From: an uncultured Gammaproteobacteria bacterium
Lineage (GTDB): Bacteria > Pseudomonadota > Gammaproteobacteria > CAYNNN01
DNA length: 64,000 nt
Assembly: GCA_964398665.1 (NCBI GenBank)
Contig: CAYNNN010000002.1
Span: forward strand, 929 to 64,928
Direction: 5' to 3'
A program made the position numbers and the translations under genes. The notes under the pieces are model-generated. The model had not been told where the DNA came from, ran no database searches, and saw only the letters and a program-made list of their open reading frames with translations. Of the stretch, positions 54,005-57,648 are shown one piece after another. Every line of letters begins with the position of its first letter. Position 1 is the stretch's first letter.

Positions 54005-55077
54005 CCCTGGACATCAGTCTCAATTTCTGGATCGCCCTGGGCCTGAGCGGCTTCTTTTGCCTGGCCCTGCAACCCCTGGCCCTGCATTGGGGCCTCGTGG
54101 ACGAACCGGATGCGCGCAAACGTCACCACGGCCCTGTACCGCTGGTCGGTGGCCTGGCGATGGTGTTGGCGCTGTTCTTTGCCCTGATGCTCACTGACCT
54201 GCCCTTGACCCCCTGGCGGCCCCTGTTTGTGGGCATCGCCATCCTGCTGCTGGTAGGATTATTCGACGATGCCCATGAACTGCACCCGCGTAACCGGCTC
54301 CTGGCCCAGATCGGCGCAGCTCTGCTGATGGTGTTCTGGGGTCAGGTGTACCTGACGGATTTGGGTGATTTAGGGGGCATGGGGCATCTGGAACTGGGCT
54401 GGCTGACAGTGCCCGTGACGGTATTTGCGGTTGTCGGGGTCATCAATGCGGTCAACCTGAGCGATGGCATGGATGGTCTGGCCGGCAGTCTGGCCCTGAT
54501 CAGCCTGGGCAGCCTGGCGGTGGTCGCAAGGGATGCCGGACAGACTGCGCCCCTGACCCTGTTACTGTTGTTTGGCGCCGTGATCCTGGGCTTTCTGGCC
54601 CTTAATTTGCGCAGTCCCTGGCTGGCGCGAGCACAGATATTCATGGGCGACGGTGGGAGCCTGATGTTGGGGTTTGTCATTGCCTGGTTTGCAGTCGCGC
54701 TGACGCAGGGCGAACAGCGGGTCCTAGCGCCCGTGACCGTCTTATGGCTCTGTGCCATCCCGTTGTTTGATACGGTAGCCAGCCTGTTGCGCCGGGCATT
54801 GAACCGGCGGGCGCTGATGCAGCCGGATCGGGGCCATTTTCATCATATCCTGCTGGCTGCCGGGCTTACGGTGCCCCAAACTTGGGGCGTCATGGTCAGC
54901 CTGGCCCTGCTCTGCGCCCTGTTTGGCCTGCAGGGCCATTATGCCCACTGGCCGGAACCCGTGATGTTTGGACTATTTTTGGCTGTATTTGCGCTATTTT
55001 TTGCCATCGTCCGCCGGGCCTGGCGAGTCAAATGCCTGCTGGGCCGGGTCCTGGCCCACGGTGATGGCCATGATTGA
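54001..55077 (+). CDS. Polyprenol-phosphate sugar-1-phosphate transferase (WecA/MraY superfamily, GT family 4 polytopic)
   Basis: Ten or more TM helices, LVDEPDARKRHHGPVPLVGG, NAVNLSDGMDGLAG (DDxxD-like) and a cytoplasmic HHILL motif region. ATGA overlap with the GT4 gene. Start trimmed to 54001. Confidence 0.8.
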   Translation: MTLDISLNFWIALGLSGFFCLALQPLALHWGLVDEPDARKRHHGPVPLVGGLAMVLALFFALMLTDLPLTPWRPLFVGIAILLLVGLFDDAHELHPRNRLLAQIGAALLMVFWGQVYLTDLGDLGGMGHLELGWLTVPVTVFAVVGVINAVNLSDGMDGLAGSLALISLGSLAVVARDAGQTAPLTLLLLFGAVILGFLALNLRSPWLARAQIFMGDGGSLMLGFVIAWFAVALTQGEQRVLAPVTVLWLCAIPLFDTVASLLRRALNRRALMQPDRGHFHHILLAAGLTVPQTWGVMVSLALLCALFGLQGHYAHWPEPVMFGLFLAVFALFFAIVRRAWRVKCLLGRVLAHGDGHD

Positions 55078-55432
55078 GCGTTTCCAGATCCGGGTGCGCG
55101 GCCATTGCATGATGCCAGTGCTGGCCGAAGGTGCCGAGGTCACCGCTGAACGGCGGGCCTGCTATTGGCCGGGTGATATTCTGGTTATCTGGACATCCGC
55201 CCATCAGCTGCGCGTCCATCGCCTGATCGCCACCTATCCCCACCCGACAGGCTGGCGCTGGATGACTCAGGCTGACGCCGCCATCCGGCCTGATGCGGCC
55301 GTCACCCACACCCAGATTCTGGGCCGGGTTCAAGGCGTACGGGTGCCCTGGCAGTGGCGCCTGTGGGCAACGGGTCGGGGCGGGTTAGCCGTGCTGCGGC
55401 GCCTACGGGCCAAGTGGCAACCGGCCCGATGA
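55064..55432 (+). CDS. S24/S26 (signal-peptidase/LexA-like) fold protein in which the nucleophile Ser of the G-x-S-M-x-P-T-L motif is replaced by Cys (GHCMMPVL)
   Basis: RVRGHCMMPVLAEGAEVTAERRACYWPGDILVIW aligns with the SPase/LexA 'GDSMxPTL ... GD.l.v' box. ATG overlaps the wecA-like stop. 120-123 aa. Confidence 0.45.
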   Translation: MAMIERFQIRVRGHCMMPVLAEGAEVTAERRACYWPGDILVIWTSAHQLRVHRLIATYPHPTGWRWMTQADAAIRPDAAVTHTQILGRVQGVRVPWQWRLWATGRGGLAVLRRLRAKWQPAR

Positions 55433-56340
55433 ATTTTGGCACGCAATTTCTGACCTGTCCGGATTTATTCCCGGCCCGACTGGCAGGAGAAAGCTGGGGG
55501 ATGGCGCGCTGTCATCTCCATCTCGCTGGCTCAACTTACGCCCTCACTGGCCTGAGTACTGCCCAACACGCCGCCCTGCAGACCCGCTTTGGCGCACTGT
55601 GCCTGGAGGCCGATACACCGGCAGTAGCCGAGCTACGGGTATATCGCGCTGATCCTGAAGATTTCTTAGGCATCCCTTATCCCGGCTGGCCCTACAGCCT
55701 GGATAGCCGCTGGCAGCCGCAGGCGGTAGAAATGGCCGGTCTGGGTCTGATGGCCCGCCTGGAGCTGGCGCCCGCCTGGCGCGGGGGCCTGTGGGTAGCC
55801 CAGGCAGATGGGCAATTGATCACCGATGGTACGCTGGAAAACGTCTTGCGGGTGCTGGTTGCCTACCGCCTGCTGGCTCAAGGTGGCCTATTGCTGCATA
55901 GCGCCGGAGTGGTGCGCCACGGTCAGGCCCTGGTGTTCTTCGGCCAGTCCGGCGCCGGGAAAAGTACCATTTCTCGCCTGAGCTTAAGCACTGGGCACAC
56001 GGTGCTCAGCGATGACATGAACGCCCTGGTCTGGCGTGACGACCGGTTCTGGGTGGAAAAACTGCCATTTGCCGGCGATCTGGGCCAAAATGCCACGGAT
56101 GCAGGCTGTTATCCCCTGCACGGCCTGTACCGGCTCATCCAGGCGCCCACACCGGCCTTGCGCGGGCTGACGCCTGCCCAAGCGGGCGCCAGGCTCCTGG
56201 CCTGTGCACCCTATGTCAACCAGAATCCGCACCAGCTCGACGCGCTGCTCACCGGGATTAACCGGATAATCAGCGTGGTAACGGTGTCGGAACTGGAATT
56301 TGCCCTAAACTCGCATTTCTGGGGTCTTTTTGAGGCTTGA
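55429..56340 (+). CDS. HprK-related kinase (HPr kinase/phosphorylase C-terminal-domain homolog) of the PqqD/rSAM-associated type
   Basis: P-loop LLHSAGVVRHGQALVFFGQSGAGKSTIS is HprK-like. ATGA overlap with the upstream gene. Followed by PqqD and rSAM/SPASM genes. Confidence 0.6.
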   Translation: MNFGTQFLTCPDLFPARLAGESWGMARCHLHLAGSTYALTGLSTAQHAALQTRFGALCLEADTPAVAELRVYRADPEDFLGIPYPGWPYSLDSRWQPQAVEMAGLGLMARLELAPAWRGGLWVAQADGQLITDGTLENVLRVLVAYRLLAQGGLLLHSAGVVRHGQALVFFGQSGAGKSTISRLSLSTGHTVLSDDMNALVWRDDRFWVEKLPFAGDLGQNATDAGCYPLHGLYRLIQAPTPALRGLTPAQAGARLLACAPYVNQNPHQLDALLTGINRIISVVTVSELEFALNSHFWGLFEA

Positions 56341-56341
56341 C

Positions 56342-56605
56342 ATGCACTATCACACCGTTTCCAGCGTGCGTTACCGCAAATTGCTGGATGAGGGGCTGGT
56401 CATTCAACAGGCGCGGGGTGAAGTCCTGGCCCTGAATGCGACCGGCTTGCGGGTGCTGGAACTGCTGGATGCCGGGCTGGCGCTAGAGGCAGTTGCAACC
56501 CAATTGGCCACCGAGTTTGCCATCACGCCCGCCGCTGCGCACACCGATGTGCAAGCTTACGTCGCAGAATTACAGGCCGCAGGCGTGCTGGCACCCGTGA
56601 CATGA
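56342..56605 (+). CDS. PqqD-family protein (RiPP recognition element / peptide chaperone)
   Basis: ~88 aa. The 'LVIQQARGEVLALNATGLRVLELLDAGLALEAVATQLATEF' pattern is typical of PqqD/RRE. Stop overlaps the rSAM start. Confidence 0.6.
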   Translation: MHYHTVSSVRYRKLLDEGLVIQQARGEVLALNATGLRVLELLDAGLALEAVATQLATEFAITPAAAHTDVQAYVAELQAAGVLAPVT

Positions 56606-57648
56606 GTGCGTTCCAGGCAGCCACAGCCAGGGCCTGGGAACAGAATGTCCTGCTCAACGTGTTGCTGGAACTGACCTATCGCTGCAACCTCGACTGTTTT
56701 TTTTGCTATAACGACTTGAATCAGCAAGGCCAGCCGCTTAGCCTGACACAATATCTGCGTCTGTTCGATGATCTGCAAGCCCTGGGTACCCTGAACCTGA
56801 CCCTTTCCGGTGGTGAACCGCTGGCGCACAAGGATTTTTTTGCCCTCGGCGCCGCAGCACGCGCACGGGGTTTCGTGATCCGGGTCAAATCCAACGGCCA
56901 TGCCCTGACCGGCAAGCTGGCCCGGCGTCTGCAAGCCGAAGTAGACCCGTTCATCATTGAGATCAGCCTGCACGGTGCCACTGCTGCGACCCACGATCGA
57001 CAAACCCGGGTTTTGGGCAGTTTTGCCCAACTCCAGCGCAACTTGCAGGAATTACGTGCCTTGGGGCTACGGGTCAAGCTCAATGCCCCGGTCACGCGCT
57101 GGAACGAGGGCGAGCTGCCCGAGATGTACGCGCTGGCGGATACATTGGGCCTGCGGATCGAATTTGATCCGCAGATTACCCTGCGGGATGACGGTGATTC
57201 TGAACCGCTGAGCATCAGTCCCAGCGCAGCCGGGGTCGCTCGGCTACACGCCCTGCACGCCGCACGTGCAGCTACAGCCGCGCCAGCCGCACCGTCGGCA
57301 CCAACGGTCAGCAAGCACTGCGGGGCCGGGTCTGCCGTCGTGGCAGTGGACCCTTACGGGAATGTGTACCCGTGTGTGCAATGGCGCCGCCGGGTGGGCA
57401 ATCTGCATCAGCAATCCATCCGGGACATCTGGCTGGGGCCTGACAGTGGCCTAGGCGAAATTCGCGCTCAAAATCAGGCGGTCAAACAGATGCTGGCCCA
57501 GCTGGGCCAGCCAACCCTGGCCTTTTGCCCCGGTTCTGCCGAACAGCAGACCGGCAGCCCGACTCAACTCTATCCTGCCGCCCGTCTGGCCTTGCAGGTG
57601 CGTCAGCTCGCCTCATCCCAAGCCTCGCACCCACACCCAGACGCCTAG
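56602..57648 (+). CDS. Radical SAM enzyme with C-terminal SPASM-type auxiliary cluster domain (peptide-modifying maturase class)
   Basis: CNLDCFFC (Cx3Cx2C) at residues ~28-35, GGEP motif, and a C-terminal Cys-rich segment (CGAGSAVVAVDPYGNVYPCVQW ... CPGS). Confidence 0.8.
   Translation: MSAFQAATARAWEQNVLLNVLLELTYRCNLDCFFCYNDLNQQGQPLSLTQYLRLFDDLQALGTLNLTLSGGEPLAHKDFFALGAAARARGFVIRVKSNGHALTGKLARRLQAEVDPFIIEISLHGATAATHDRQTRVLGSFAQLQRNLQELRALGLRVKLNAPVTRWNEGELPEMYALADTLGLRIEFDPQITLRDDGDSEPLSISPSAAGVARLHALHAARAATAAPAAPSAPTVSKHCGAGSAVVAVDPYGNVYPCVQWRRRVGNLHQQSIRDIWLGPDSGLGEIRAQNQAVKQMLAQLGQPTLAFCPGSAEQQTGSPTQLYPAARLALQVRQLASSQASHPHPDA

Follow-up and report, generated by a model that had tools for sequence, protein, structure and literature searches.

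What is a small protein that carries the motifs of signal peptidases, with a cysteine where those enzymes have their nucleophilic serine, doing directly in front of a kinase-like gene? The gene that raises this question lies at 55064..55432 on the forward strand of the window (the whole 64-kb stretch of DNA analyzed) and encodes, from an ATG start, a Cys-type S26B-like peptidase of 122 amino acids, here called S26C. Independent gene callers return an identical 122-residue product, in exact agreement with the original prediction for this DNA, and the start codon is kept in the L002 ortholog (64-70% identical). The start of the gene overlaps the 3' end of an upstream WecA-like gene by 14 nt, and its stop codon overlaps the ATG of an HprK-like gene (ATGA at 55429-55432), which places the peptidase directly 5' of the HprK-like kinase, as had been claimed. 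The WecA-like gene belongs to an exopolysaccharide cluster in the window.

S26C is a member of a large, unnamed family of soluble signal-peptidase relatives. When 1.84 billion cluster representatives are searched with a profile, 1769 relatives of the peptidase appear at E<=1e-3, of which 386 reach E<=1e-10. Searches with the single window sequence give no match in Pfam, sod_Ni_protease alone in NCBIfam (E 0.02), noise only with phmmer against the PDB, and three proteins in a word-index homolog search. Neither NCBIfam nor the searched copy of Pfam holds a model for the Cys-peptidase, public records name the family's proteins 'hypothetical protein', and literature searches returned no paper on the family or on the four-gene cassette described below.

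AF2 models the peptidase from a 127-sequence alignment with a pLDDT of 94.9; this run was used in place of one from a 3-sequence alignment, which was poor (pLDDT 57). The model has the mostly-beta catalytic core fold of S24/S26 peptidases that defines clan SF, matching the signal-peptidase/LexA fold first proposed for it. No TM-like segment is present in 147 of 151 members (maximum 19-residue hydropathy <1.6), and the window protein peaks at 0.78. Its C-terminal basic amphipathic helix (residues 96-118, 55349..55417, +, from the AF2 secondary structure), in which R99 is found in 125 of the 127 aligned members, is likewise not transmembrane by hydropathy. The family is predicted to be soluble and cytoplasmic.

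Four sequence boxes, all on the forward strand, make up the putative active site. Box B, G13-H-C15-M-M-P18 (55100..55117), aligns with G-S56-M-E-P of human SEC11A and contains the predicted nucleophile, C15 (codon TGC, 55106-55108). It is followed by box C, Y34-W-P-G37-D38 (55163..55177), which runs on into ILVIW and whose G37 and D38 are invariant. Box D, V-H52-R53-L-I (55214..55228), aligns with V-H96-R-V of SEC11A and holds the predicted general base, H52 (55217-55219). Box E, T68-Q-A-D71-A-A-I-R-P-D77 (55265..55294), aligns with T-K-G-D116-N-N-A-V-D-D122 and supplies both a predicted structural aspartate, D71 (55274-55276), and the predicted third member of a triad, D77 (55292-55294).

These boxes are strongly conserved. 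M16, P18, G37, D38, H52, and R53 are found in all 127 aligned members, D71 in 126, D77 in 125, and Y34 and P36 in at least 90%. At the nucleophile column, 122 members have Cys, four have Ser, and one has a gap, a Cys frequency that is inflated because Cys-bearing sequences were used to build the search profile and TGC was obligatory in the pattern of the genome scan. The gap belongs to P0002, an N-terminally truncated gene call whose true start reads GDCMQP. The G-x-S-M-x-P and GD-hydrophobic motifs noticed in the original prediction are thus real and, in the profile search and the 127-member alignment, far beyond chance. An alignment of orthologs, which had been suggested as a check on the Cys, finds it kept across a large family; with Cys in 122 of 127 members, a strain-specific substitution in an ordinary Ser/Lys S26 peptidase is not borne out.

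The Ser variants are informative in their own right. Two of them, P0131 and P0130, lie within the same four-gene cassette as the Cys members, and the P0131 locus has the same candidate precursor family. Because the Ser codons differ (TCG, TCC, and AGT) and the nearest relatives of these variants bear Cys, at least two independent Cys/Ser switches are implied. Repeated switching of this kind would be as expected of a nucleophile. A role for the Cys as an Fe-S or metal ligand was also considered and rejected, since no other Cys is conserved and Ser can take its place.

The closest known relatives of the family are the ER/archaeal-type (S26B) signal peptidases. The best PDB matches of the family profile are SEC11A (E 2.2e-5), SEC11C, and SpsB, and alignment to these three bears out the earlier claim that Cys occupies the position of the Ser nucleophile. 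The alignment pairs C15 with S56, H52 with H96, D71 with D116, and D77 with D122 of SEC11A, whose triad is S56-H96-D122 (roles of D116 and D122 from bioRxiv 10.1101/2020.11.11.378711). The absence of a Lys at general-base distance had been noted correctly; what was missed is the invariant His of box D at that place. Because the partner is His52 with Asp77, as in S26B, a Cys-His-Asp triad is expected rather than a Cys-Lys dyad, an assignment to which residue-by-residue homology with the SEC11 triad points. Other family members match the archaeal/ER-type model TIGR02228 at ~1e-9, and also SipW, at 36-38 bits against a cutoff of 51.85; the window peptidase has no match to the TIGR02228 and SipW models of NCBIfam. 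An engineered S90C 'thiol-leader peptidase' made from Escherichia coli LepB, which Tschantz et al. are said to have described in 1993, reportedly stays active, so Cys would be chemically competent in the clan SF fold.

In the window, S26C stands first in a cassette of translationally coupled genes. The second gene (55429..56340, +) encodes a 303-residue ScmC-like P-loop protein of the HprK/PEPCK type, a putative precursor kinase with the Walker A motif GQSGAGKST. Its matches to the NCBIfam models HprK_rel_B, HprK_rel_A, and ScmC all fall below cutoff; its orthologs carry PF27840 ScmC, and alignment of the PEPCK P-loop also supports the assignment. The third gene (56342..56605, +) encodes an 87-residue PqqD-family peptide-binding protein, or RiPP recognition element (PF05402, 46 bits, E 7e-12), with further matches to the NCBIfam models lasso_PqqD and PqqD. 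The fourth (56602..57648, +) encodes a radical SAM/SPASM enzyme of 348 residues (PF04055, PF13186) with the cluster motif CNLDCFFC and with NCBIfam peptide-maturase relatives among its matches. All four genes of the cassette are intact, and purifying selection acts on them: between the window and the L002 ortholog, dN/dS reaches 0.20 in the peptidase gene, with 0.13 in ScmC, 0.14 in PqqD, and 0.08 in the radical SAM gene, values that are approximate with dS saturated (1.4-2.4).

Members of the peptidase family are almost always found in this four-gene cassette, which occurs in more than 100 genomes. A scan of a one-genome-per-species collection with a hand-built degenerate DNA pattern, in which TGC was required, yields at least 119 matching stretches, each on a different contig. 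Among the matches listed (124 loci), an S26C homolog is present in 123, ScmC in 103, the radical SAM enzyme in 89, and PqqD in 87. The canonical gene order is seen in at least 67 loci, and rearranged loci hold the same four genes. At least four loci (L052, L053, L103, and L124) have a peptidase homolog with no detectable adjoining cassette. Gene context was left out for P0004, P0012, and P0074, whose contigs are too short.

A family of small ORFs adjoins the cassette and provides a candidate substrate. The first two clusterings of small ORFs were dominated by alternative-frame and low-complexity matches in GC-rich DNA, yet they indicated a convergent downstream ORF, from which jackhmmer defined the family. 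The resulting candidate precursor, ...PRILSREPLE-A-x-A-xx-C...K...C...S, lies next to the cassette in at least 61 loci and, among the matches listed, at 40 of the 43 loci where the cassette is complete and each flank extends for at least 500 bp. Among these listed matches, 60 of 61 precursors have a C-terminal Ser, and the tail contains two Cys in 58 of 61. The residue at position 1 after E-x-L-E is A, V, or S (T in an extra Ser-variant locus, L131), and that at position 3 is Ala, or Gly once. Read as a putative processing site, positions 1 and 3 follow the -3/-1 rule of signal peptidases, and this AxA site precedes the first Cys. The family was not found in the 64-kb window or in L002 (hmmsearch --max, E<=50, and regular expressions), and the closest relatives, L002-L005, have no member of it.

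Taken together, these features suggest that S26C is probably a cytoplasmic thiol endopeptidase of clan SF (S26B-type) that uses Cys15-His52-Asp77 and serves its cassette as the leader peptidase of a ribosomal peptide. The original prediction of a leader peptidase needs correction: a secretory role does not hold for a protein with no membrane anchor, whereas removal of a RiPP leader is most likely in a PqqD/radical-SAM cassette. Because the peptidase is embedded in such a cassette, the leader most likely comes from a ribosomal natural-product precursor, and the peptidase most likely cuts it off the modified peptide. In the proposed pathway, the PqqD protein would first bind the conserved leader (...PRILSREPLE), and the radical SAM/SPASM enzyme would then cross-link the short core with its two Cys and one Lys. 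The HprK-like protein would act third, on the invariant C-terminal Ser, probably by phosphorylation, as do lasso-peptide HPr-kinase homologs. Last, the Cys-peptidase, in which the Ser-His-Asp triad would have become Cys15-His52-Asp77 with Asp71 as a structural residue, would cut the leader at A-x-A, two residues before the first core Cys, by way of a thioester acyl-enzyme. We infer the activity, the cleavage site, the order of steps, the kinase target, and the product chemistry from the computational comparisons above, which establish the fold, the conserved motifs, the homology to SEC11-type peptidases, the linkage of the cassette genes, and the presence of the adjoining small-ORF family with its features.

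A wider proposal is, in our judgment, evenly balanced. It holds that the family is a natural thiol branch of an otherwise all-serine clan and acts in the cytoplasm as the dedicated, PqqD-assisted leader peptidase of an undescribed class of ribosomal peptides, with the system widespread in uncultured Acidobacteriota and sulfur-cycling Gammaproteobacteria. In this class, a leader ending in ...PRILSREPLE-AxA would precede a core whose two Cys and one Lys are cross-linked by the radical SAM/SPASM enzyme, and the HprK-like kinase would modify the C-terminal Ser.

It is unlikely that S26C is a Cys-His-Asp peptidase active in another capacity, whether LexA/UmuD-like self-processing, processing of a cassette protein, immunity or degradation, or transpeptidation. 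By sequence, the protein stands nearest to SEC11, to SipW, and to the model of archaeal signal peptidases and not to LexA, which the family profile matches weakly (E 0.03). In addition, box B of the window protein begins after just 12 residues, with no DNA-binding or cleavable N-domain; the Ser-Lys dyad and the Ala-Gly or Cys-Gly self-cleavage site that S24 proteins (LexA/UmuD/cI) have in an N-terminal extension are both missing, and box D has a His. A LexA-type repressor, considered separately, is ruled out by the missing N-domain. The transpeptidase variant, which shares in this low probability, has the thioester intermediate ligate or cyclize instead of hydrolyze; ligation would be unproductive because an acyl-enzyme formed at AxA would hold the leader and not the core. 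The conserved AxA of the precursor is itself placed right for a signal-peptidase-type cut.

A non-catalytic module, in which the signal-peptidase fold would serve just as a peptide-binding or chaperone domain that hands the precursor to the kinase or to the radical SAM enzyme, and the Cys would be structural or redox-sensing, is somewhat less probable still. Streptococcus pyogenes SipA, a signal-peptidase fold in pilus assembly, offers a model for such a protein. However, inactive homologs normally lose their catalytic residues, and the 127 diverse S26C proteins show little or no variation at the Cys/Ser, the His, the Arg, and the two Asp. Position 15 is limited to the nucleophiles Cys and Ser, exchanged more than once, and PqqD already serves the cassette as its dedicated peptide binder. 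Of the two alternatives in the original prediction, a thiol-dependent peptidase fits much better than a repurposed binding module, the triad being invariant with Ser as the sole alternative at its first position.

The idea that S26C is a conventional type I signal peptidase of the secretory pathway, intact or degenerate, placed by chance beside unrelated genes at the end of a polysaccharide locus would account for the S26 motifs, for the overlap with the WecA-like gene of the exopolysaccharide cluster, and for the glycosyltransferase genes that also precede the peptidase homolog in L096 and L124, but it is very improbable given the missing membrane anchor, scores below the cutoff of signal-peptidase models, purifying selection on the gene (the approximate dN/dS of 0.20), and, among the matches listed, a ScmC/PqqD/rSAM linkage kept across phyla where the WecA/glycosyltransferase linkage is confined to close relatives and two other loci. 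The secretory assignment as such was rejected for want of a TM segment.

To our knowledge, the LexA/signal-peptidase clan is regarded as wholly serine-based. Cysteine goes unmentioned in a 2026 survey of the superfamily (PMC12984324). If the Cys of S26C is catalytic, the family would represent a large natural cysteine branch in this clan and a further example of a fixed scaffold on which the nucleophile has switched. Because Ser- and Cys-bearing orthologs occupy the same cassette, a direct Ser/Cys comparison is possible. With a leader-peptidase role, S26C would likewise be a new type among the leader peptidases that take part in the biosynthesis of ribosomal natural products. The cassette and the precursor family, along with a predicted cleavage site and a predicted modification of the C-terminal Ser, offer a concrete handle on an uncharacterized class of peptides that is almost confined to uncultured bacteria.

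Compared with known systems, S26C shares the clan SF fold and the box B and box C motifs with LepB and with LexA/UmuD; unlike these S26A and S24 proteins, which use a Ser-Lys dyad, its predicted base is His. LepB is membrane-bound, and LexA and UmuD are self-cleaving proteins with extra domains. The resemblance to MEROPS S26B (SEC11A/C, archaeal SPase I TIGR02228, and Bacillus SipW) extends to the fold, the order and spacing of the boxes, a V-H-R-[LV] box whose His, in place of Lys, is the predicted general base, the Asp pair of box E, and an A-x-A site in the candidate substrate. The nucleophile and the His are 37 residues apart in the window peptidase and 40 in SEC11A, the His and the first Asp 19 and 20, and the two Asp six in both. 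Unlike S26B, about 96% of sampled members have Cys for Ser, and the Cys-peptidase lacks partner subunits and the membrane anchor that places the S26B active site on the trans side of the membrane. It is predicted to be cytoplasmic and belongs to a peptide-maturation cassette instead of serving the Sec pathway.

The cassette resembles the SynChlorMet (SCM) cassette and the HPr-rel-A/HprK-related kinase systems (NCBIfam TIGR04248-04251 and TIGR04352-04355; Pfam PF27840 ScmC), where a P-loop protein of the ScmC/HprK type is likewise found with a PqqD homolog and a radical SAM/SPASM enzyme resembling PqqE. Unlike SCM, which has two radical SAM genes, the window cassette has one, and its proteins score far below the equivalog cutoffs (ScmC 25.6 against 125, ScmD 18.8 against 100, ScmE 76 against 400), as does its kinase against HprK_rel_A (30.4 against 200). 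In lasso-peptide clusters, split B1 (PqqD) and B2 (Cys protease) pairs remove leaders, and HPr-kinase homologs phosphorylate the C-terminal Ser of the precursor (PMC8498205). Unlike these systems, the S26C cassette has a radical SAM/SPASM enzyme instead of a lasso cyclase and a different precursor family, and its peptidase has a signal-peptidase fold where lasso B2 is a transglutaminase-fold Cys-His-Asp protease. It shares with lasso B1, B2, and HPr-kinase homologs the combination of a stand-alone PqqD binder, a small putative thiol protease, and an HprK-like kinase, and its candidate precursors end in Ser, the kinase target in paeninodin-type systems (PMC8498205).

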